From Escherichia coli (GTDB lineage Bacteria; Pseudomonadota; Gammaproteobacteria; Enterobacterales; Enterobacteriaceae): a stretch of DNA of 64,000 nucleotides. The position numbers were made by a program, and so were the translations under genes. The stretch lies in NCBI RefSeq assembly GCF_044324785.1, contig NZ_CP172127.1. The stretch is one strand, 5' to 3'. Under the pieces are notes generated by a model. It did not search any database, had not been told where the DNA came from, and saw only the letters and a list, made by a program, of their open reading frames with translations. Below are positions 16,532-61,115 of this stretch, in pieces; the first letter of the stretch is position 1, and each line of letters opens with the position of its first letter.

Positions 16532-16707
16532 TCGCTAAATAATAGAGCAACCTTTAATAATCTTCTGCTGAATAAAGATTATCTCATATATTAATTTTAT
16601 GAGATTTTTTTAGGATTATATCAAGGAGAAGAAACGAACTTATTAAGCTAGAATAGCTGCGGGTGCTTGAGACTGTTTGTCTCAGGTATTCACCGAAAGG
16701 CAGACAG

Positions 16708-16775
16708 AGAAAAGCCCCACCTGACTATAAATCAAAGTGAGGCTACCCTATGCCTGAACACCATAAGGTTAGCCT
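16708..16775 (-). ncRNA. sokA: putative Sok-type antisense RNA of the hokA locus (approximate bounds)
   Basis: Inference from hok/sok architecture; minus-strand hairpin with U-tract lies just upstream of the mokA start; exact ends not determinable. Confidence 0.35.
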
Positions 16776-16962
16776 CTTACTCGTTGGAAATCAACACAGG
16801 AGGCTGGGAATGCCGCAGAAATATAGATTGCTTTCTTTAATAGTGATTTGTTTCACGCTTTTATTTTTCACCTGGATGATAAGAGATTCACTGTGCGAAT
16901 TGCATATTAAACAGGGGAGTTATGAGCTGGCGGCATTTTTAGCCTGCAATTTGAAAGAGTAA
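16750..16962 (+). CDS. mokA: Mok-type overlapping reading frame (translational coupling frame for hokA)
   Basis: 70-aa ORF in the same frame as hokA starting 60 nt upstream, as in other hok/mok loci. Confidence 0.6.
   Translation: MPEHHKVSLLLVGNQHRRLGMPQKYRLLSLIVICFTLLFFTWMIRDSLCELHIKQGSYELAAFLACNLKE
16810..16962 (+). CDS. hokA: Hok-family type I toxin, small membrane peptide (50 aa)
   Basis: MPQKYRLLSLIVICFTLLFFTWMIRDSLCELHIKQGSYELAAFLACNLKE; AGGAGG 7 nt upstream of the ATG. Confidence 0.85.
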   Translation: MPQKYRLLSLIVICFTLLFFTWMIRDSLCELHIKQGSYELAAFLACNLKE

Positions 16963-17117: not shown

Positions 17118-17489
17118 ATGAATAAACTGCTTTTACTGTTGATAATGCTCTATCAACGACATCTTTCTCCTCGCAAAGGATACCGCTGTGCTTACAGTGT
17201 GTTGTACCAAACGCAGGGATGTTCGGGAGCAGTCAAAGAGATTATTCAACAGAAAGGTGTTATTGCAGGCTGGGGCGAGATACGTCAGCGTTTTGCAGAT
17301 TGCCGACTTGCGGCACTGACAATCAGGCAGAAGCAACACCTGAACGAGGTAATACGTAAAAAGAAGAATAATAATTGTGATTGTTCCGGGTGCGATGGTG
17401 CGGTCTGTCGTGATTGCGACATTCCGGTGCCGGATCTGGATTGTTCCTGGGACTGTTCTTCTCTACATATAAAGCGGTTTTTCCAATAA
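17118..17489 (+). CDS. hypothetical Cys-rich protein; N-terminus loosely resembles the YidD/DUF37 signature, C-terminus has CxC/CxxC clusters
   Basis: 123-aa ORF; GGAG 6 nt upstream of ATG; motif LYQRHLSPRKGYRC resembles the YidD YQRxISP...CR pattern; identity not confirmed. Confidence 0.45.
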   Translation: MNKLLLLLIMLYQRHLSPRKGYRCAYSVLYQTQGCSGAVKEIIQQKGVIAGWGEIRQRFADCRLAALTIRQKQHLNEVIRKKKNNNCDCSGCDGAVCRDCDIPVPDLDCSWDCSSLHIKRFFQ

Positions 17490-17520
17490 AAAAATCCCCG
17501 CCAAATGGCAGGGATCTTAG
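17490..17520 (-). terminator. cspA rho-independent terminator
   Basis: Minus-strand hairpin ccctgcc / ggcgggg (one G-U pair) followed by U-tract immediately after cspA stop. Confidence 0.6.
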
Positions 17521-17542
17521 ATTCTGTGCTTTTAAGCAGAGA

Positions 17543-17755
17543 TTACAGGCTGGTTACGTTGCCAGCTGCCGGGCCTTTAGCGCCGCTTTCGATGGTGAAG
17601 GACACTTTCTGACCTTCGTCCAGAGATTTGTAACCATCGTTCTGGATAGCAGAGAAGTGTACGAACACGTCTTTAGAGCCATCGTCAGGAGTGATGAAGC
17701 CGAAGCCTTTGTCAGCGTTGAACCATTTTACGATACCAGTCATTTTACCGGACAT
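17543..17755 (-). CDS. cspA: major cold shock protein CspA
   Basis: 70 aa [38 protein letters not shown]..., canonical CspA. Confidence 0.98.
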
Positions 17756-17915
17756 AGTGTATTACCTTTAATAATTAATTGTGCCTTTCGGCGATATGGC
17801 GTGCTTTACAGATTTTTGAAGCGTTAAAGGAAATGCACTACGAGGGGTATCAACGATAACTCTTGAAGAGGACTTGCCTTACTACACTGCTTTAATGGTC
17901 TGTACGTCAAACCGT
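17756..17915 (-). promoter_or_regulatory. cspA long 5' untranslated leader including the cold-box element (UGACGUACAGA, complement of 17899-17909)
   Basis: Reverse complement of 17901-17915 reads ACGGTTTGACGTACA, matching the recalled 5' end of cspA mRNA; leader is about 160 nt. Confidence 0.7.
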
Positions 17916-18035
17916 TGAGTGCATTAAGCCACGCATTGGCGGGTGATGCAACAATTATTTTTCATATTTATGATTAATCGGTTGGAAAACGGTCCTGTCA
18001 TCAGGACCGTAAACAGCAATAAAGTGGATAAAAGT

Positions 18036-21257: not shown

Positions 21258-21409
21258 TGTTAATCCTTAATAACCTTTTTATTCTTTGCCACGGGTTCCG
21301 TGGCGGGAGATTATGCCGCGTGAACATGAAGATTATTCCTGGGAATACTCGGAAATTTGTAAGTAATATTTAACTGCTCAATACATCTAACCTTTCAGGA
21401 GTCTTCGGT

Positions 21410-23743
21410 TTGGCCAACTCATCCTCACGATATTCCGTTCTGACTGCCGCCCACTGGGGGCCGATGCTGGTTGAAACCGACGGCGAAACCGTGTTTAGCT
21501 CGCGTGGCGCGTTAGTCACAGGAATGGAAAACTCCTTGCAGAGCGCGGTTCGCGACCAGGTTCACAGCAATACGCGGGTACGATTTCCAATGGTGCGCAA
21601 AGGCTTTCTCGCGTCACCGGAAAACCCGCAAGGCATTCGTGGGCAGGATGAATTTGTTCGCGTGAGTTGGGATGAGGCGCTGGATCTTATTCACCAACAA
21701 CATAAACGCATTCGTGAGGCTTATGGTCCGGCATCGATTTTTGCTGGTTCCTACGGCTGGCGTTCAAACGGCGTGCTGCATAAAGCCTCGACATTATTAC
21801 AACGCTATATGGCGCTGGCAGGCGGTTATACCGGGCATCTGGGGGATTATTCGACCGGTGCAGCACAGGCGATCATGCCGTATGTCGTGGGGGGCAGCGA
21901 AGTTTATCAACAGCAAACCAGTTGGCCGTTGGTATTGGAACATAGCGATGTCGTGGTGCTATGGAGTGCTAACCCACTCAATACGCTGAAAATTGCGTGG
22001 AATGCATCCGATGAGCAGGGGCTTTCTTACTTTTCCGCACTGCGTGACAGCGGGAAAAAGCTGATCTGCATTGATCCAATGCGATCGGAAACCGTCGATT
22101 TCTTTGGCGATAAAATGGAGTGGGTGGCACCGCACATGGGCACCGATGTTGCGCTGATGCTGGGGATCGCCCATACGCTGGTGGAAAATGGTTGGCACGA
22201 CGAAGCGTTTCTGGCGCGTTGCACCACAGGTTATGACGTCTTCGCCTCTTATTTGCTGGGCGAGAGCGACGGAATAGCGAAAACCGCCGAATGGGCGGCA
22301 GAGATTTGTGGTGTTGGCGCAGCGAAAATCCGCGAACTGGCGGCTCTTTTCCATCAAAATACTACCATGCTGATGGCTGGCTGGGGAATGCAGCGCCAAC
22401 AGTTTGGTGAGCAAAAACACTGGATGATCGTCACGCTGGCGGCAATGTTGGGGCAAATCGGCACACCCGGCGGCGGTTTTGGACTTTCTTACCATTTTGC
22501 CAATGGTGGTAACCCCACGCGCCGCGCTGCGGTGCTCTCTTCCATGCAGGGCAGCTTGCCTGGCGGCACCGATGCGGTGGATAAAATCCCTGTTGCCCGC
22601 ATTGTTGAAGCACTGGAAAACCCCGGTGGCGCATATCAACATAACGGTATGGACCGACATTTCCCGGATATTCGTTTTATCTGGTGGGCGGGCGGTGCCA
22701 ACTTTACTCATCATCAGGATACCAATCGCCTGATCCGTGCCTGGCAAAAACCGGAGCTGGTGGTGATCTCTGAATGCTTCTGGACGGCTGCGGCGAAACA
22801 CGCGGATATCGTTCTGCCTGCGACCACTTCGTTTGAGCGTAATGATCTCACCATGACCGGCGATTACAGTAATCAGCATCTGGTGCCGATGAAGCAAGTG
22901 GTGCCGCCACGTTATGAAGCGCGTAATGATTTTGATGTCTTTGCCGAGTTGAGTGAACGTTGGGAGAAGGGCGGCTATGCGCGGTTTACGGAAGGAAAAA
23001 GTGAGCTGCAATGGCTGGAAACGTTTTATAACGTTGCCCGGCAGCGCGGGGCAAGCCAGCAGGTTGAATTGCCGCCATTTGCTGAGTTCTGGCAAGCCAA
23101 CCAGTTAATTGAGATGCCGGAAAACCCGGACAGCGAGCAGTTTATTCGCTTCGCCGATTTTCGCCGCGATCCGCAGGCGCATCCATTAAAAACTGCCAGT
23201 GGTAAGATTGAAATCTTCTCGCAGAGTATTGCTGATTACGCTTATCCGGATTGCCCTGGGCATCCAATGTGGCTGGAGCCGGACGAATGGCAGGGCAATG
23301 CCGAACCGGAACAGTTGCAGGTACTTTCTGCTCATCCGGCACATCGTCTGCACAGCCAGCTGAATTACAGTTCTCTGCGCGAATTGTACGCGGTGGCAAA
23401 TCGTGAGCCTGTCACCATTCATCCTGACGATGCCCAGGCGCGCGGCATACAAGATGGCGATATTGTTCGGTTGTGGAACGCACGCGGGCAAATTCTTGCC
23501 GGAGCGGTCATTAGCGAGGGAATTAAACCTGGCGTGATTTGTATTCATGAAGGGGCATGGCCGGATCTGGATTTAACCGCTGACGGTATTTGTAAAAACG
23601 GCGCGGTGAACGTTCTGACCAAAGATCTCCCCAGCTCGCGGCTGGGGAATGGCTGTGCGGGTAATACGGCGCTGGCATGGCTGGAAAAATACAACGGTCC
23701 GGAACTGACACTTACAGCGTTTGAACCACCGGCCAGCTCATAA
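21410..23743 (+). CDS. bisC: biotin sulfoxide reductase (molybdopterin oxidoreductase)
   Basis: 777-aa ORF beginning with TTG ([26 protein letters not shown]...) preceded by CAGGAG. Confidence 0.93.
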
Positions 23744-24152
23744 TCCAGGTGGGTAGTTGGGTTTCATCCTGCCATGCGCAGTCGACAATGTGAAAACCCT
23801 GCGCATGGTAAAAATCTATCGCCGGTTGATTTTTTTGATAAACCTCCAGCATCAGATGGGGATGGCGCTGCTGCACATACTGCATTAGCGCCTTACCAAT
23901 ACCGCGTCTGACGGCCTTCGGTGCGACAAACATTGCAGCCAGAAATCGGCCTTCCATAATGCTGACAAAACCGAGAAGCTTACCGTCTTCTTCCCAGACC
24001 CAGTTTTGCGCGTTGGCAAGATAGGCATCCCGCACCAGCGGAATGCAATCACGCCAGTAATTCGCTTTTATAAAGGGATGCCCCCAGGTTGTACTTTCCA
24101 GCCACAGTTCGAGGATCGCGGGGAGTTCTGAACGTTGCGCTTCCCGAATCAT
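23712..24152 (-). CDS. yiaC: GNAT-family N-acetyltransferase YiaC
   Basis: 146-aa ORF; 3' end overlaps bisC 3' end by 32 nt (convergent). Confidence 0.88.
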
Positions 24153-24712
24153 GGTTTATTTCCCGGATAGCAACAGCAGCCAACCACATGATCATTCACC
24201 AGCCCACATGCCTGCATAAAGGAGTAACAGATTGTGGTACCAACAAACTTAAAACCACGCTTTTTCAGGGCTTTAGATAGAGCGTCGGAGGCGGGCGTAG
24301 ATGTAGGGATTTCGCTCAACGTTGTGGCTTGTGTCACCTGTGGTTGATGATTGACAAACGACCAGACAAAGTCGGCAAACGGTTCGCCGTTCTGTTCCAT
24401 TTGCAGGTACGCCCGCGCATTACCAATAATTGCCTGAATTTTCCCGCGATGGCGGATAATCCCGGCGTCCTGTACCAGTCTTTCGACATCCTCTTCCTGC
24501 ATTGCAGCCACCTTCACCGGATCGAACTGATGAAAGCTGGCGCGATAGTTTTCGCGTTTTTTGAGGACGGTGATCCACGATAATCCAGCCTGCTGCCCTT
24601 CAAGGCAGATCATTTCGAACAGTTTTTTACTGTCAGTTTCAGGCACGCCCCATTCATTATCATGGTAGGCAATATAAAGCGGGTCCTGACTCACCCAGCC
24701 GCAACGTTCCAT
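24149..24712 (-). CDS. tag: DNA-3-methyladenine glycosylase I
   Basis: 187 aa from MERCGWVSQDPLYIAYHDNEWGVPE...; six-frame ORF is N-terminally extended without support; 4-nt overlap with yiaC start. Confidence 0.93.
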   Translation of the reverse strand: MERCGWVSQDPLYIAYHDNEWGVPETDSKKLFEMICLEGQQAGLSWITVLKKRENYRASFHQFDPVKVAAMQEEDVERLVQDAGIIRHRGKIQAIIGNARAYLQMEQNGEPFADFVWSFVNHQPQVTQATTLSEIPTSTPASDALSKALKKRGFKFVGTTICYSFMQACGLVNDHVVGCCCYPGNKP

Positions 24713-29111: not shown

Positions 29112-29444
<333 letters not shown>

Positions 29445-29446
29445 AC

Positions 29447-29482
29447 GTAGGCCTGATAAGACGCGCCAGCGTCGCATCAGGC
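29447..29482. repeat. REP (repetitive extragenic palindromic) element
   Basis: gtaggcctgataagacgcgccagcgtcgcatcaggc matches the classical E. coli REP consensus. Confidence 0.8.
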
Positions 29483-30067
29483 AAATGTGCCGGCCCATTG
29501 TCGGATGCGGCGTGAACACCTTATTCGACCTACACACCACACATTTCCCTGCCAAATTTGCGCCCCATATCTCACTATCCATTAACGGATTTGTGACAGA
29601 AACCATTGTCTTTTTTTATATTTGCTTAAATCTTTTTTTGCGTTACTTATGGATGGCGCTGGCATTTTCCCCTGTGCGTTTTAGCGTTCATGGTATTAAT
29701 CGCTCAGATATCCACCTTTTCCTCAGATTTTTTTCACTAAATGCATAAAACTTAATCACCAATTGTTGCTAAATATTAAGCTGATTGTTCTGGTCATGTT
29801 GGAGTAGCACAAATTTCTCTGCTGCAAATAGCTGTTTGAAGTTTTTTTAATCTTTGTTTGTGGATTCTCACCGTTGGTGTAAATCCCGGTTGGCTGTATT
29901 GACGTTTTCACATTCTGTTGACAGATTGTAGGTCACGAGGGGCATTTTATGGAGGATCCGCACTGTTACACTGATGTTAATTAGTACGGCATCCCCACCT
30001 CATAACGTTGACCCGACCGGGCAAAAAACAAAAAAGGTCAGGCAGCGACAACCCACTGCAAAGGGTT

Positions 30068-31743: not shown

Positions 31744-31842
31744 GCCTGATGCGCTCCGCTTATCAGGCCTACGAAAACTCTGCAATGTATTGAGTTTGCA
31801 CGATTTTGTAGGTCGGATAAGGCGTTTGCGCCGCATCCGGCA
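31744..31842. repeat. BIME: two REP elements in the dppA-dppB intergenic region
   Basis: gcctgatgcgctccgcttatcaggcctac (31744-31772) and gtaggtcggataaggcgtttgcgccgcatccggca (31808-31842). Confidence 0.8.
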
Positions 31843-37596: not shown

Positions 37597-37665
37597 GAGA
37601 GAGAAAACCCCCGCACGTTGCAGGTATGCACCTGACAACATCACGGGGGCCATTCTTGAACCTGA
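37597..37665 (-). ncRNA. rdlD: putative Rdl antisense RNA, copy 1 (approximate bounds)
   Basis: Minus-strand hairpin (ggggg...ccccc) with U-tract inside the ldr leader; placement by analogy with K-12 ldrD/rdlD. Confidence 0.35.
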
Positions 37666-37715
37666 ACAACTCAAGAATAGCCGCGAAACGTTGTCATTAC
37701 AACTCAGGCGGCTAT

Positions 37716-37823
37716 ATGACGCTCGCAGAACTGGGCATGGCCTTCTGGCATGATTTAGCGGCTCCGGTCATTGCTGGCATTCTTGCCAGCATGATCGTGA
37801 ACTGGCTGAATAAGCGGAAGTAA
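37716..37823 (+). CDS. ldrD: Ldr-family type I toxin peptide (35 aa), copy 1
   Basis: MTLAELGMAFWHDLAAPVIAGILASMIVNWLNKRK. Confidence 0.85.
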   Translation: MTLAELGMAFWHDLAAPVIAGILASMIVNWLNKRK

Positions 37824-37876
37824 CGTGTCAGACGGGCGTCAGGCTGCCGTAATGGCAAGTTGCGCCCGGATCAGAC

Positions 37877-37908
37877 CGCAGGGATAAAACTCTGCGGCCT
37901 TTTTCGTA
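37877..37908 (+). terminator. terminator of ldr copy 1
   Basis: ccgcag...ctgcgg hairpin followed by CCTTTTTCGT. Confidence 0.65.
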
Positions 37909-38079
37909 AGAAAAATGCAACGGTTGCAAGCGGATAATATTCTGCGGAATGCGCAGCACAGAGTGAAGACGTGACGGATTCCGGAACAGAAAAACAGTCG
38001 TAGAATCAGCGGCAAGCCGGAAAGGTTCCGGTGAGGCGCAATGTTGCGGGGGCTTAATCCCTGGTGGCATTGGTTGCTG

Positions 38080-38148
38080 GAGAGAGAAAACCCCCGCACG
38101 TTGCAGGTATGCACCTGACAACACCACGGGGGCCATTCTTGCATCCAA
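38080..38148 (-). ncRNA. putative Rdl antisense RNA, copy 2 (approximate bounds)
   Basis: Same structure as copy 1, shifted by 483 nt. Confidence 0.35.
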
Positions 38149-38198
38149 ACAATACAAGAATAGCCGCGAAACGTTGTCATTACAACAGAGGCGGCTAT

Positions 38199-52100: not shown

Positions 52101-52585
52101 GCCGCGTCACCATCGGCCTGAACAACATGATCTGGCATTACGACAAAGACCTGAGTGGTTACTCACTCGGTCAGGGCGGTTACTACAGCCCGCAGGAATA
52201 CCTGTCGTTTGCCATACCGGTGATGTGGCGGGAGCGCACGGAAAACTGGTCGTGGGAGCTGGGGGCGTCTGGCTCGTGGTCGCATTCACGCACCAAAACC
52301 ATGCCGCGTTATCCGCTGATGAATCTGATCCCGACCGACTGGCAGGAAGAAGCTGCGCGGCAATCGAACGATGGCGGCAGCAGTCAGGGCTTTGGCTACA
52401 CGGCGCGGGCATTACTTGAGCGACGTGTTACTTCCAACTGGTTTGTCGGCACGGCAATTGATATCCAGCAGGCGAAAGATTACGCACCCAGCCATTTCCT
52501 GCTCTACGTACGTTATTCCGCCGCCGGATGGCAGGGTGACATGGATTTACCGCCGCAGCCGCTGATACCTTACGCCGACTGGTAA
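49112..52585 (+). CDS. bcsC: cellulose synthase outer-membrane subunit BcsC (TPR repeats plus beta-barrel)
   Basis: 1157-aa ORF; 19-nt overlap with bcsZ. Confidence 0.95.
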
Positions 52586-52666
52586 GTTTTCAGATAGCGC
52601 CTCTCTTAATGCCGCTGCGATCGGGTATACTCGGGCGGCAATCTGGGATTTCCGGGGGGAGACAAT

Positions 52667-54655
52667 TTGCGCGTAAGTCGCTCGTTAACAATCAAGCAGA
52701 TGGCAATGGTGGCAGCCGTTGTCCTGGTGTTCGTTTTTATTTTTTGCACCGTTTTGCTGTTCCATCTGGTCCAGCAGAATCGCTATAACACGGCTACGCA
52801 ACTGGAAAGCATTGCTCGCTCTGTCCGCGAACCCTTATCTTCAGCTATTTTGAAAGGCGATATTCCCGAAGCGGAAGCTATTCTTGCCAGCATTAAACCG
52901 GCAGGCGTGGTCAGCCGTGCCGATGTGGTGCTGCCCAACCAGTTCCAGGCGCTGCGTAAAAGTTTTATTCCAGAGCGTCCGGTGCCGGTAATGGTTACTC
53001 GCCTGTTTGAGCTACCGGTGCAAATCTCGCTGGGCGTTTACTCGCTCGAACGTCCGGCAAATCCGCAGCCAATTGCCTATCTGGTGCTACAGGCGGATTC
53101 CTTCCGTATGTATAAGTTCGTGATGAGCACCCTCTCAACGTTAGTGACCATTTACTTACTTTTGTCGCTAATATTGACTGTGGCGATTAGCTGGTGCATT
53201 AACCGACTGATTTTGCATCCGTTACGCAATATTGCTCGTGAACTTAACGCCATCCCAGCCCAGGAGCTTGTTGGTCACCAACTGGCATTACCACGTCTGC
53301 ATCAGGACGATGAAATCGGTATGTTGGTGCGTAGTTACAACCTCAACCAGCAATTGCTGCAGCGCCATTATGAAGAACAGAACGAAAACGCGATGCGCTT
53401 CCCGGTGTCGGATTTGCCGAACAAAGCCTTGCTGATGGAGATGCTGGAGCAGGTGGTGGCGCGTAAACAAACTACCGCGCTGATGATCATCACCTGTGAA
53501 ACCCTGCGTGATACTGCGGGTGTGCTGAAAGAGGCGCAAAGAGAAATTCTGCTGCTGACGCTGGTGGAAAAACTCAAATCGGTACTGTCGCCACGTATGA
53601 TCCTCGCGCAGATTAGTGGTTATGACTTTGCTGTCATTGCCAATGGTGTACAGGAACCGTGGCACGCAATCACTTTAGGTCAGCAAGTGCTCACTATCAT
53701 GAGCGAGCGCCTGCCGATTGAACGTATTCAACTCCGTCCGCACTGTAGCATTGGCGTGGCGATGTTCTACGGCGATCTCACCGCCGAACAGCTTTACAGT
53801 CGCGCTATTTCTGCGGCATTTACCGCTCGCCATAAAGGCAAGAATCAGATTCAGTTCTTTGATCCGCAGCAGATGGAAGCCGCCCAACAGCGGTTGACGG
53901 AAGAGAGCGATATCCTTAATGCACTGGAAAATCATCAGTTTGCGATTTGGTTACAGCCACAGGTCGAGATGACCAGCGGTAAACTGGTCAGTGCGGAAGT
54001 GTTACTGCGTATCCAGCAACCGGATGGCAGTTGGGATCTGCCGGATGGCTTAATCGATCGCATTGAGTGCTGTGGGCTGATGGTTACCGTCGGTCACTGG
54101 GTGCTGGAAGAGTCCTGTCGACTGCTGGCTGCCTGGCAAGAGCGCGGCATTATGCTGCCCTTGTCGGTAAACCTCTCAGCGCTGCAACTGATGCACCCGA
54201 ATATGGTAGCGGATATGCTGGAACTGTTAACCCGCTATCGCATTCAGCCGGGAACACTGATTCTGGAAGTGACAGAAAGCCGACGTATTGACGACCCTCA
54301 TGCTGCGGTGGCAATCCTCCGTCCGTTGCGTAATGCCGGAGTTCGGGTGGCGCTGGATGATTTCGGCATGGGCTATGCGGGGCTGCGTCAGCTGCAGCAT
54401 ATGAAATCGTTGCCAATCGACGTACTGAAAATCGACAAAATGTTTGTTGAAGGCTTGCCGGAAGATAGCAGCATGATTGCTGCAATTATCATGTTGGCGC
54501 AAAGCCTGAACTTACAAATGATTGCCGAAGGCGTGGAGACTGAAGCACAACGCGACTGGCTGGCAAAAGCGGGCGTTGGTATTGCCCAGGGCTTCCTTTT
54601 TGCTCGCCCACTCCCTATTGAAATCTTCGAAGAGAGTTACCTGGAAGAAAAGTAG
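52667..54655 (+). CDS. pdeK: c-di-GMP phosphodiesterase PdeK (degenerate GGDEF plus EAL)
   Basis: 662-aa ORF from TTG ([21 protein letters not shown]...) preceded by a GGGGGGAG Shine-Dalgarno; start not certain. Confidence 0.88.
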
Positions 54656-57840: not shown

Positions 57841-58043
57841 TAAATAACCCGGTAGCGTTTCTTCTGCGCTGCCGGGATTAACGGTAATAAATTAGTTACC
57901 GTGATATAACCGCAGATATTTTTCCGGGCACGGCGGTAGCGCGCAGATAACCATTCATTATTAAAATAAACTTACCGTAGAGTGGGTTTAATTATTTATT
58001 AGCTGAATAAATTATACCGGTGCCTCCTGGAAGGAGTGAGTTT

Positions 58044-58469
58044 ATGCTTGTGTTAAAATCACAATCGATTGGATTCAGGATTTCCACAACTTATTTATCT
58101 TTAACATATACAGAGTCTGATGGCGTCAACATTAAAGTAGATGCTCTGGAGTTAATATCAAAAGAGAAAGATTATGTTCAAATTGAACTGGTCTTCACTA
58201 CAGTTGCTGAAGTTAAGTGTGCTACCGTCAATTTTTATGAAGCCAACTATAACAATATTGTTATTAAGAAGGTTGATGGTGAAAATCTGGACTCCGGTAT
58301 ATATCAAGTAATGAATTCTGTACCGCTTGAAGAAAAAGAGAAATTATATGACCCTAAAAAACGGTTGAAGTTAAAACATTATATTATAGCAGGTTATGAT
58401 AGTTATGTTGAGATTTTAGCTACTGGTTTTAGCTGTATACGATGCCAGGCAATAGATGGTGTTAAATAA
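58044..58469 (+). CDS. hypothetical protein (island ORF A, 141 aa)
   Basis: ATG at 58044 with GGAAGGAG 6 nt upstream; six-frame ORF starts 24 nt earlier at GTG inside the RBS; no recognised family. Confidence 0.6.
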   Translation: MLVLKSQSIGFRISTTYLSLTYTESDGVNIKVDALELISKEKDYVQIELVFTTVAEVKCATVNFYEANYNNIVIKKVDGENLDSGIYQVMNSVPLEEKEKLYDPKKRLKLKHYIIAGYDSYVEILATGFSCIRCQAIDGVK

Positions 58470-58723
58470 TGGCCTATCATATAGAAATATTGAAAATTGA
58501 AGAAACTGATAAAGTAGTAAAATATGAATTTGGACCTACATCTTCTGACTATTGTAGATCTGATTACGGCGAGTTCGTGATAGATAAAAGAACGGGTGAG
58601 ATGACATTAGTCAGAATGGTTAAAAACGATTCGGCTAATAAATTTTATTTGCGAGCGAGTTTTAAGATTCTGACCTGTTGGCGAAAGGGCTATTTGCCAA
58701 AAAATGGGGAATGGGCTTCTTAA
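58469..58723 (+). CDS. hypothetical protein (island ORF B, 84 aa)
   Basis: ATG overlaps the ORF A stop (TAATG), indicating translational coupling; no recognised family. Confidence 0.55.
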   Translation: MAYHIEILKIEETDKVVKYEFGPTSSDYCRSDYGEFVIDKRTGEMTLVRMVKNDSANKFYLRASFKILTCWRKGYLPKNGEWAS

Positions 58724-58772
58724 TAAGTAACTTTGCAGAATAAGTGAATTTTCCCATTTTTGGGGGCAGTCG

Positions 58773-59039
58773 TTGATTCTTACACAGTTTATGTTATGGG
58801 TGCAGAAAAATACTGGGCATAATATTAGATGCAATACCAATACATTATCAACTAGCATAGTTATTGATTTTGATAATGATATCTATATTGCCAGGTTTAC
58901 AGTTTGGGATGATTTAAGTTGTATGTCAGAAGTTATATGCGTTGAAACGGGGGATTATAAATTAAATCAGCGAAATGAATTCCATACTTATGATTCGCTA
59001 AGGAAGATTTTTGATAATTTCATGGGAATTATACAATAA
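58773..59039 (+). CDS. hypothetical protein (island ORF C, 82-88 aa)
   Basis: ORF opens at TTG 58773; first ATG at 58791; no clear RBS; may be degraded. Confidence 0.4.
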   Translation: MILTQFMLWVQKNTGHNIRCNTNTLSTSIVIDFDNDIYIARFTVWDDLSCMSEVICVETGDYKLNQRNEFHTYDSLRKIFDNFMGIIQ

Positions 59040-59064
59040 ATTGCGCTAATAAAATAAAAACATT

Positions 59065-59556
59065 ATGTTTAAATTGATAGCAATCAAAGAAACTCCTTTG
59101 GGAGTAAAAGATGACGAAGATCTCTCGGTATCAGAAGCCATATACTCAACCTATACTGATTATACAAACGATATCCTTATGGTGTTTGATAAAGTCGTTT
59201 TATGTTTAGATAGAAAAGGAGATATTAGCGATATCTATAATGATATCGTCAATATATTTGAGCAGATAGAACTGGGTACTAAACAGTTTTTTATGTGTTT
59301 TTTATCCAGTACATTCACTACACGTTGGGAATTTGAGCATAAAAGCCCAGATACTATCAATATAACCGCTTATTGGTTTGACGTAAGATATCTTTATGGT
59401 ATCAACTCGATTATTAAAACTTCCACAATTGAAATCCCAGTATCTGAATTTAAAATGCAATGGGGAAATATTATAAAACCAATAAAAAAAGATATTCTTT
59501 CGTTAGGTTATGATGAAACGTTAGTAAATTTTTCTTTTTTTAACAATTTTAATTGA
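59065..59556 (+). CDS. hypothetical protein (island ORF D, 163 aa)
   Basis: ATG at 59065, weak or absent RBS; acidic, no recognised motifs. Confidence 0.45.
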   Translation: MFKLIAIKETPLGVKDDEDLSVSEAIYSTYTDYTNDILMVFDKVVLCLDRKGDISDIYNDIVNIFEQIELGTKQFFMCFLSSTFTTRWEFEHKSPDTINITAYWFDVRYLYGINSIIKTSTIEIPVSEFKMQWGNIIKPIKKDILSLGYDETLVNFSFFNNFN

Positions 59557-59629
59557 TGAGTTATTAGTCTGGTTTATCTAAAAATGTAGGTGGTTTTTTT
59601 GCGACATCAACGGATTTAAAGGAGTATAA

Positions 59630-60214
59630 ATGCGTAACAAAAAACGCATACTATTCTTGCTAACAGTCATTCTTTGCTTAACCGGTCTTTATTCCTGCAA
59701 CAAAATTTTTCTCTTACTCTGGGATGCCAATAATATTTATGTCAGTACAAAAAATAATATCGATAAAGACAAGGTAAAAATAGAATTCGGTATCAGCGTC
59801 AACACGATCAACCGAGAAACGGATGCCGAATTATTTGCTGACAGAGATAAGTATGCAGTGCTCTTCGATGGTAGCCTGAAAAATAAGATGATAAACGAAT
59901 ACGGAGAAAATGATTTTTTAATTACCTACGATAACCGCTGCTATTTATCATTTCGTCAATTTAAAACCAATCGTCGTCATCAACATGACTATTATTTTGA
60001 CTTCTTTAACAACAATGGGAATGTCTTCGTCACGGTCGAAATTAAAGGTGAGAACCCGCTTAAATTTACGCGTAGTTTGAATGATATGCGTCAGCAGTTT
60101 ATTTCAAATCATCAGCACCGCTCGGTTCGTCCCTGCAAGATGATTAACGGAGAACGAATATCTACCCGTTCTCCGTCAAAAACCATTATTCCGGCATCGC
60201 CTCACGCGGGATAA
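59630..60214 (+). CDS. hypothetical exported or lipoprotein-like protein (island ORF E, 194 aa), C-terminus possibly truncated or chimeric
   Basis: AAGGAG 7 nt upstream; N-terminus MRNKKRILFLLTVILCLTGLYSC resembles a signal/lipoprotein peptide; 3' end runs into GC-normal DNA and overlaps the kdgK 3' end by 29 nt. Confidence 0.55.
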   Translation: MRNKKRILFLLTVILCLTGLYSCNKIFLLLWDANNIYVSTKNNIDKDKVKIEFGISVNTINRETDAELFADRDKYAVLFDGSLKNKMINEYGENDFLITYDNRCYLSFRQFKTNRRHQHDYYFDFFNNNGNVFVTVEIKGENPLKFTRSLNDMRQQFISNHQHRSVRPCKMINGERISTRSPSKTIIPASPHAG

Positions 60215-61115
60215 TCGCGCCGCGATACTGAATAACGGTACTTGCGGTCAGGTGCCCGCGTTTCGCCGCGTTTTCCGCACTGCCGCCCGTCAAACGTACC
60301 GCCAGATAACCGGCACTGAAAGAGTCGCCAGCTGCGGTGGTATCGATCACTTTTTCTTTCGGCAGTTTCACCGCCGGAACATCCACTAACCCTTCGCCAG
60401 CAATGGACACCAGGCAAGAATCCGCCCCGCGTTTCACCACCACTTCTTTCACGCCCGCGTTATGGGTGCGCGCAATGACGTCTTCCACCGGCTGTTGACC
60501 CCACAGCGCGTCTTCGTCGTCCAGCGTCAGGAAGGCGATATCCGTGCATTCCAGCATTTGCTGGTACACCTGCTGTGTCTCTTCTTTGCTGGCCCACAGG
60601 CGCGGACGATAGTTATTGTCGAAAATCACTTTTCCGCCGTTGGCGCGGCATTCGCGCAGCAGAGAAAGCAGCTTTTCGCGGCTGGTCGGGCTTAAGATCG
60701 CCAGGCTAATCCCGCTCAGGTAGAGATAATCGAAATTCGCCAGCTCTTCGCAAATCGCCGCAGATTGCTCGCTCTCCAGCCAGAATTTGGCGGCGGCTTC
60801 GTTACGCCAGTAGTAGAACGTACGTTCGCCGGTGCTGTCGGTTTCAATGTAGTAAAGGCCCGGCAGACGGTTTTCCATCCGTTGGGTCAGGGAAGTATCA
60901 ACGTTCTCGCCGTGCCAGGCGTCCAGCATTTGCTGGCTAAAACTGTCCGTTCCCAGCGCCGTTACGTAATGAACGGTTAATGCCGCAGGATCGACCTGAC
61001 GGGCGATATAGACGGAAGTGTTCAGGGTATCGCCGCCGAAACCGCGCTTAACGTCCGCGCCTTTCTCGGAAAGCTCAATCATGCATTCGCCAATCACGGC
61101 AATCTTTTTGGACAT
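60186..61115 (-). CDS. kdgK: 2-dehydro-3-deoxygluconokinase
   Basis: 309 aa from MSKKIAVIGECMIELSEKG...; pfkB-family kinase; six-frame ORF is N-terminally extended without support. Confidence 0.93.
   Translation of the reverse strand: MSKKIAVIGECMIELSEKGADVKRGFGGDTLNTSVYIARQVDPAALTVHYVTALGTDSFSQQMLDAWHGENVDTSLTQRMENRLPGLYYIETDSTGERTFYYWRNEAAAKFWLESEQSAAICEELANFDYLYLSGISLAILSPTSREKLLSLLRECRANGGKVIFDNNYRPRLWASKEETQQVYQQMLECTDIAFLTLDDEDALWGQQPVEDVIARTHNAGVKEVVVKRGADSCLVSIAGEGLVDVPAVKLPKEKVIDTTAAGDSFSAGYLAVRLTGGSAENAAKRGHLTASTVIQYRGAIIPREAMPE

Follow-up and report, generated by a model that had tools for sequence, protein, structure and literature searches.

Within the window, as we call the whole 64,000-nt stretch of Escherichia coli DNA analysed here, the convergent genes bisC and yiaC share the ends of their coding sequences, and bisC and a second gene, pdeK, appear to begin at TTG rather than ATG. 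We asked whether these boundaries are real, whether they are old or peculiar to this strain, and whether they serve regulation or simply belong to the ordinary structure of enterobacterial genes.

By annotation, BisC is a biotin sulfoxide/methionine-S-sulfoxide reductase, a molybdoenzyme of the DMSO reductase family with the Pfam domains Molybdopterin_N (residues 12–52), Molybdopterin (56–517), and Molydop_binding (636–741). Set against the DorA and TorA/TorZ enzymes of that family, it can be aligned over its full length with mature DorA, but it has no Tat signal peptide such as its periplasmic relatives carry. YiaC is a GNAT N-acetyltransferase (Pfam Acetyltransf_1, residues 12–120), listed in K-12 as peptidyl-lysine N-acetyltransferase YiaC. 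PdeK, a membrane c-di-GMP phosphodiesterase with a GAPES3-HAMP-GGDEF-EAL architecture according to Pfam and annotation, is called HmsP, the name of the Yersinia protein, by PGAP. The features of the convergent pair and its neighbor are as follows.

21410–23743, plus strand: bisC coding sequence, 777 aa, first start TTG (six-frame ORF list, RefSeq and K-12 annotation)
23712–24152, minus strand: yiaC coding sequence, 146 aa, ATG start (six-frame ORF list, K-12 annotation)
23712–23743, both strands: convergent overlap of the bisC and yiaC coding sequences, 32 nt, phase (123:132) (ORF list and sequence)
24149–24712, minus strand: tag coding sequence, 3-methyladenine DNA glycosylase I (ORF list, RefSeq, K-12)

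The bisC stop codon, TAA at 23741–23743, lies inside yiaC, and the yiaC stop codon, a minus-strand TAA at 23714–23712, lies inside bisC. Read on the plus strand, the shared segment gives the end of BisC, (L)TAFEPPASS, and read on the minus strand the end of YiaC, (I)MSWPVVQTL, each followed by its stop, with codon position 1 of bisC opposite position 1 of yiaC and position 2 opposite position 3. Both partners are genuine protein genes, with Pfam domains, homologues in the PDB, and orthologues in 69 loci. The 32-nt overlap reported in the preliminary description is exact in the ORF list and in the curated K-12 annotation: in MG1655 (NC_000913.3), yiaC occupies 3713652–3714092 and bisC 3714061–3716394, giving the identical overlap. 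Comparison with the curated K-12 annotation, proposed there as a check, thus returned the same overlap and both TTG starts. The RefSeq/PGAP boundaries and starts of bisC, yiaC, and pdeK in strain N3 likewise agree with the window.

The window is identical to strain N3 (100%) over the bisC/yiaC and pdeK segments and about 97% identical to K-12. Overall identity to N3 is 99.1–99.4%, and indels occur near 29.3 and 31.7 kb; N3 and window coordinates agree at bisC but differ by 323 nt at pdeK.

Taken by itself, such an overlap is commonplace, by the counts for E. coli and for the region. About 75 convergent pairs overlap in E. coli (PMC4161906), two of the seven convergent pairs in the region do so, and the phase (123:132) is the commonest one, accounting for 49% of 1,218 convergent overlaps of at least 5 nt (PMC2174442). 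The bisC/yiaC pair falls into the same class as other convergent overlapping prokaryotic pairs of this phase, with short shared 3' ends of tens of nucleotides, and does not differ from them qualitatively. Two TTG starts among the 52 coding sequences of the region are equally unremarkable. What chance leaves unexplained is the conservation across genera of the overlap phase and of both TTG codons.

We followed the overlap through related genomes by scanning for BisC in one genome per species, which yielded 80 loci, 70 of them with yiaC convergent to bisC; the ten loci without yiaC carry a BisC paralogue that is 66–67% identical. One locus with a disrupted bisC (L085) was left out of the counts, leaving 69 loci with an intact orthologous bisC. 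The overlap was present in all 69, which come from Enterobacteriaceae and span about 25 genera, so it is not a strain-specific stop mutation. Its length was 32 nt in 31 loci, 38 nt in 32, and 23 nt in six, equal to 2 modulo 3 in every locus and therefore in the same phase throughout. Across these loci the position of the bisC stop is constant and that of the yiaC stop shifts, and YiaC database entries of 143, 146, and 148 aa accord with overlaps of 23, 32, and 38 nt. We found no earlier description, for bisC/yiaC, of such phase-locked conservation with a stop that slides on one side only.

The codon alignment carries a further trace of the shared sequence. Third-position entropy in the last ten codons of bisC is 0.66, against 1.12 for the whole gene; 18 of 739 windows along the gene have values as low, and a permutation gave p of about 0.04 on four codons. 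This reduced synonymous variation is a modest signature of dual-coding constraint.

The two tails differ in how far they can be traced. BisC aligns to DorA up to residue 778 of 780 and to the structure 7l5i up to residue 809 of 813, and its tail matches the extreme C-termini of DMSO reductases from Rhodobacter sphaeroides and R. capsulatus and the end of a TorZ-like enzyme. On this alignment evidence, the C-terminal tail of BisC is ancestral. YiaC resembles its GNAT paralogue YjaB (2kcw) over residues 2–134, and beyond residue 134 its tail is different and cannot be aligned; a protein search for distant YiaC homologues returned only Enterobacteriaceae orthologues of 143–148 aa. This one paralogue, together with the drifting stop, suggests that the last ~12 residues of YiaC are the accommodating partner, and these residues would be read from the antisense of the BisC tail. 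With the second codon position of one gene opposite the third position of the other, the YiaC stop would be able to slide (143, 146, or 148 aa) and the bisC stop would stay put.

An overlap of this kind also has consequences for transcription. The tag stop and the yiaC ATG share 4 nt (ATGA), and on account of this overlap we assign the two genes to one operon. Most likely, tag-yiaC forms a single transcription unit that drives transcription antisense into bisC, a reading that comes from gene order and spacing. There is no room for an intergenic terminator, so RNA polymerase leaving yiaC would run antisense into bisC. Published data point to where it stops: a region of Rho termination in MG1655 at 3,714,344 (plus strand) lies antisense in bisC, 252 nt beyond the yiaC stop (PMC7815308), with a score of 7.30 and p of 5.5 × 10^-14 (PMC7815308, Supplementary file 2). 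Reads upstream and downstream of it numbered 90 and 23 without bicyclomycin and 60 and 112 with it (PMC7815308). Among the cases of Rho-dependent antisense termination in that study (Adams et al. 2021, PMC7815308), the bisC region is a typical, bicyclomycin-sensitive entry. Its equivalent in the window can be placed approximately, by collinearity of the equal-length genes and bearing in mind that the published windows are 800 nt wide:

23440–23480 (about 23460), minus strand: approximate equivalent of the MG1655 Rho termination region

Read-through from tag-yiaC would accordingly be halted by Rho about 250 nt into antisense bisC. On the other strand, a sequence scan found no site resembling an intrinsic terminator downstream of bisC, and bisC transcripts would likewise have to end within antisense yiaC or tag. 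Neither yiaC nor bisC has an entry in the TERMITe supplements. The expectation that transcripts reading through either gene would be antisense to its partner is thus borne out by published overlapping transcripts (PMC12288877) and by the antisense Rho region (PMC7815308). Because few reads were counted in the Rho data, we think it most likely that the overlapping transcripts are a by-product of genome compaction that is tolerated where genes are weakly expressed, rather than a dedicated switch.

The chief alternative is that the overlap is a regulatory device in which collision of RNA polymerases, or cleavage of the RNA duplex by RNase III, makes expression of tag-yiaC and of bisC mutually exclusive. 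This is the excludon, a concept that reportedly goes back to Sesto et al. 2013. The pair shares with excludons its overlapping convergent transcripts, and yiaC-bisC is indeed among the 165 convergent excludons catalogued in MG1655 (PMC12288877). Listing in that catalogue required that coverage overlap in 50% or more of 58 transcriptomes (PMC12288877), however, and such overlap of coverage, the sole basis of the catalogue, is unavoidable where coding sequences themselves overlap. The hallmarks of an excludon are mutually exclusive expression and processing by RNase III, whereas the transcript overlap of bisC/yiaC is forced by the overlap of its coding sequences, and the literature yielded no data showing reciprocal expression of bisC and tag-yiaC. 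Transcription antisense to bisC can be detected and is limited by Rho (PMC7815308), as a regulatory role would have it, but the few reads (90 and 23) indicate weak transcription, from which only small interference is expected. Nor is there an obvious functional opposition between sulfoxide repair on one side and a DNA glycosylase and an acetyltransferase on the other. An arrangement and phase kept in 69 of 69 loci would fit regulation too; dual-coding constraint explains this conservation equally well, and accounts for the conserved arrangement because neither stop can shift freely. We therefore regard a functional excludon as unlikely and retain the by-product reading.

A structural alternative is that a terminator is embedded in bisC itself.

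23627–23649, minus strand: GC-rich hairpin CCCCAGC-CGCGA-GCTGGGG, inside bisC, 63 nt past the yiaC stop

If this hairpin were an intrinsic, possibly bidirectional, terminator of tag-yiaC, it would explain the conservation of the region. It is a terminator-like match on the minus strand, 63 nt after the yiaC stop, 44 of the 69 loci retain a stable predicted fold (−16 to −17 kcal/mol), and one locus (L066) has a compensatory change from C:G to T:A. Against this, its U tract (ATCTTTGG) is poor, Klebsiella and Raoultella have lost the stem, and the conserved peptide LPSSRLG largely sets the stem bases. The region contains six matches of this type where shuffled sequence leads one to expect 5.7, and the curated Term-seq lists hold no 3' end for yiaC, whose termination is Rho-dependent and farther downstream. 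Given the weak U tract, the patchy conservation, and the lack of a published 3' end, we rejected an intrinsic terminator in the overlap or its flanks, and consider the embedded terminator very improbable.

We turn to the start codons, for which the relevant features are these.

21286–21314, plus strand: candidate promoter-like site for bisC, TTGCCA-17-GATTAT (consensus scan)
21397–21401, plus strand: bisC Shine-Dalgarno sequence AGGAG, 8-nt spacer to the TTG
21410–21412, plus strand: bisC TTG start (sequence; same codon in K-12)
52658–52661, plus strand: pdeK Shine-Dalgarno sequence GGAG, 5-nt spacer to the TTG
52667–52669, plus strand: pdeK TTG start (sequence; TTG also in K-12)
52667–54655, plus strand: pdeK (yhjK/hmsP) coding sequence, 662 aa (ORF list, K-12 and N3 annotation)

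The TTG starts with good Shine-Dalgarno sequences that had been noted for both genes match the curated K-12 annotation, where pdeK of MG1655 (3683630–3685618) also starts at TTG. Upstream of the bisC TTG there is an in-frame TAA at 21371–21373, and the next in-frame ATG, GTG, or TTG after it is the ATG at 21464, codon 19 (Met19). In pdeK, the next in-frame ATGs are at 52700 (Met12) and 52706 (Met14). The promoter-like site ahead of bisC overlaps the palindrome GCCACGG-N4-CCGTGGC, and its columns are conserved across genera. An Rfam search of the window and of 13 orthologous loci gave no match near bisC, yiaC, or pdeK; the idea of a Moco riboswitch ahead of bisC was rejected, as no covariance model matched at its gathering score.

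Start codons of bisC could be read in 66 loci by anchoring on the invariant HWG motif. They were TTG in 62, GTG in four, and ATG in none, although, the sampled species being phylogenetically related, a figure such as 62 of 66 exaggerates how many observations are independent. The starts lie 11–14 codons before HWG and 5–9 nt after a conserved CAGGAGC, of which (C)AGGAG(C) shows little or no variation, both in an alignment of 14 genera and over the 66 loci. The first base of the start codon has an entropy of 0.33, and only one of 143 fourfold-degenerate sites, taken from invariant codons of the same bisC alignment, is as conserved. For pdeK/hmsP, the start was TTG in all nine Enterobacterales sampled (the window and eight orthologues), with GGAG 5–7 nt before it in 8 of 8 orthologues. 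The PdeK N-terminal sequence MR[VIL]xRSLTIKQM is conserved in Klebsiella, Pantoea, Sodalis, Pectobacterium, and Brenneria-like genomes, and codons 2–11 differ among the eight orthologues mainly at third positions. The supposition that these features are probably ancestral is therefore upheld by the overlap in 69 of 69 loci, a TTG or GTG start of bisC in 66 of 66, and a TTG start of pdeK in 9 of 9 Enterobacterales.

That these starts are easily mis-annotated is also true: the PdeK database entries P0001 and P0003 begin at Met14 (MVAAVV...) and lack the conserved first 13 residues. We find it scarcely credible, however, that the TTGs go unused and that translation begins at Met19 in BisC and, in PdeK, at Met12 or at Met14, where an older model of 649 aa placed the start. 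In-frame ATGs do exist at 21464, 52700, and 52706, some PdeK entries begin at Met14, and the TRAINSPOTTER and INRI-seq supplements list no N-terminus or other entry for bisC, pdeK, or yhjK. Yet a conserved Shine-Dalgarno sequence stands at the proper distance from each TTG, and the residues that such starts would remove are conserved. In BisC, Molybdopterin_N (from residue 12) and the AAHWG motif begin upstream of Met19, residues 7–18, AAHWG among them, correspond in alignment to structured residues at the N-termini of DorA/TorZ-like enzymes (residue 9 to residue 7 of mature DorA), and Met19 is missing from the Citrobacter orthologues. In PdeK, residues 2–11 are conserved as protein across the order. 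The curated K-12 records have themselves been revised to the TTG starts (NP_418007.3, NP_417986.4).

We conclude that translation of bisC and pdeK probably begins at UUG codons, 8 and 5 nt, respectively, downstream of strong Shine-Dalgarno sequences. Strong Shine-Dalgarno sequences at canonical spacing are what the two genes share with UUG-initiated bacterial genes. They differ from usual UUG starts, which in general drift readily to AUG or GUG (PMC5622118), in that their UUG has been kept over genus- to order-level divergence. From this retention one can argue that the weak start itself is maintained, and a maintained UUG would most simply keep the levels of BisC and PdeK low. A bolder version holds that the UUGs of bisC and pdeK/hmsP are actively kept attenuators and that, in parallel, bisC/yiaC is a true excludon; we see this as possible but doubtful. 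It is compatible with a retention of TTG well in excess of what neutrality predicts and with the overlap of the transcripts. If it were true, the amounts of BisC and PdeK made would be fixed at a low level and would respond to start-codon discrimination (IF3, initiator-tRNA status), and the phase-locked overlap might couple sulfoxide repair to the expression of tag-yiaC.

We consider it highly likely that the overlap and the two UUG starts are ordinary, ancestral enterobacterial gene structure that the curated K-12 annotation represents correctly. Curated annotation and published catalogues already record these features, and since the K-12 annotation has both the overlap and the TTG starts, neither is new in itself. 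What we add is minor: the phase of the overlap is locked in all 69 loci while the stop slides on one side only, and both UUG starts have been kept to an unusual evolutionary depth. Their significance lies mostly in annotation hygiene: curated boundaries are confirmed, and pipelines that prefer ATG cut PdeK by 13 residues and would cut BisC by 18. Beyond this, the bisC/yiaC overlap and the UUG starts make neat textbook examples, of dual-coding constraint in the one case and of selection for weak initiation in the other, and, if the UUGs are maintained attenuators, bisC and pdeK would offer convenient natural test cases of start-codon-dependent expression control, an incremental gain.

A second BisC-like gene, with 66-67% identity, is carried by Citrobacter, Trabulsiella and Entomohabitans at ten of the loci from our one-genome-per-species BisC scan (L073-L078, L080-L082 and L084). 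The N-terminal start candidates of this gene are ATG-rich, and it is not accompanied by a convergent yiaC, which shows that only the orthologous bisC locus has the overlap. In Citrobacter amalonaticus AUH_CA_2023_1 (L085), the bisC frame stops 189 nt short of yiaC; this copy appears to be disrupted by a premature stop or frameshift, and could be either a pseudogene or an assembly error.

Upstream of the two TTG-initiated genes, bisC and pdeK (yhjK), we located the following elements:
21279-21314, plus strand: palindrome GCCACGG-N4-CCGTGGC and an overlapping promoter-like TTGCCA-17-GATTAT, in the divergent yiaD-bisC intergenic region
52447-52461, plus strand: CGGCACGGCAATTGA, a putative sigma-54 site within the 3' end of bcsC

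The palindrome is kept across genera from Escherichia to Klebsiella and Kluyvera, and in non-Escherichia genera only, an additional motif, CACCTGCA, precedes the bisC Shine-Dalgarno sequence by 15-25 nt. A sigma-54 binding site inside bcsC, 204 nt ahead of yhjK/pdeK, has been described (PMC4591121), and CGGCACGGCAATTGA differs from that published site by one mismatch, the T of TGGCAC being C in this strain.

The window contains a second convergent coding overlap, of 29 nt (59630-60214, plus strand, and 60186-61115, minus strand), whose partners are kdgK and a 194-aa ORF that has no annotated function and no Pfam match. Its phase is 2-mod-3, as for bisC/yiaC, and the arrangement is annotated identically in N3, the closest genome. 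Between yhjJ and kdgK lies a strain-specific block; K-12 has these two genes adjacent:
~58020-60214: block of five small genes

One of them encodes an immunity protein of the TriTu family (PF24689 in Pfam, E 8e-20) and the remainder gave no Pfam match; the block is possibly an orphan toxin-immunity islet.

Rfam matches elsewhere in the window, each of which is expected in this region of E. coli, were as follows:
16661-16812: sok antitoxin, adjoining hokA
17488-17916: cspA thermoregulator
29112-29530: tRNA-Pro, then RtT and naRNA4
31765-31807: ES036
37602-38150: two rdlD antitoxins, alongside two ldr toxin genes

Identity to N3 (NZ_CP031609.1), whose annotation lists wecH and yhjG as frameshifted, was 100% across bisC-yiaC and pdeK and 99.1-99.4% over the whole window, with indels of about 60-170 nt at around 29.3 and 31.7 kb. 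The comparison suggests that the window derives from a strain related to but distinct from N3, or that it is a mosaic.
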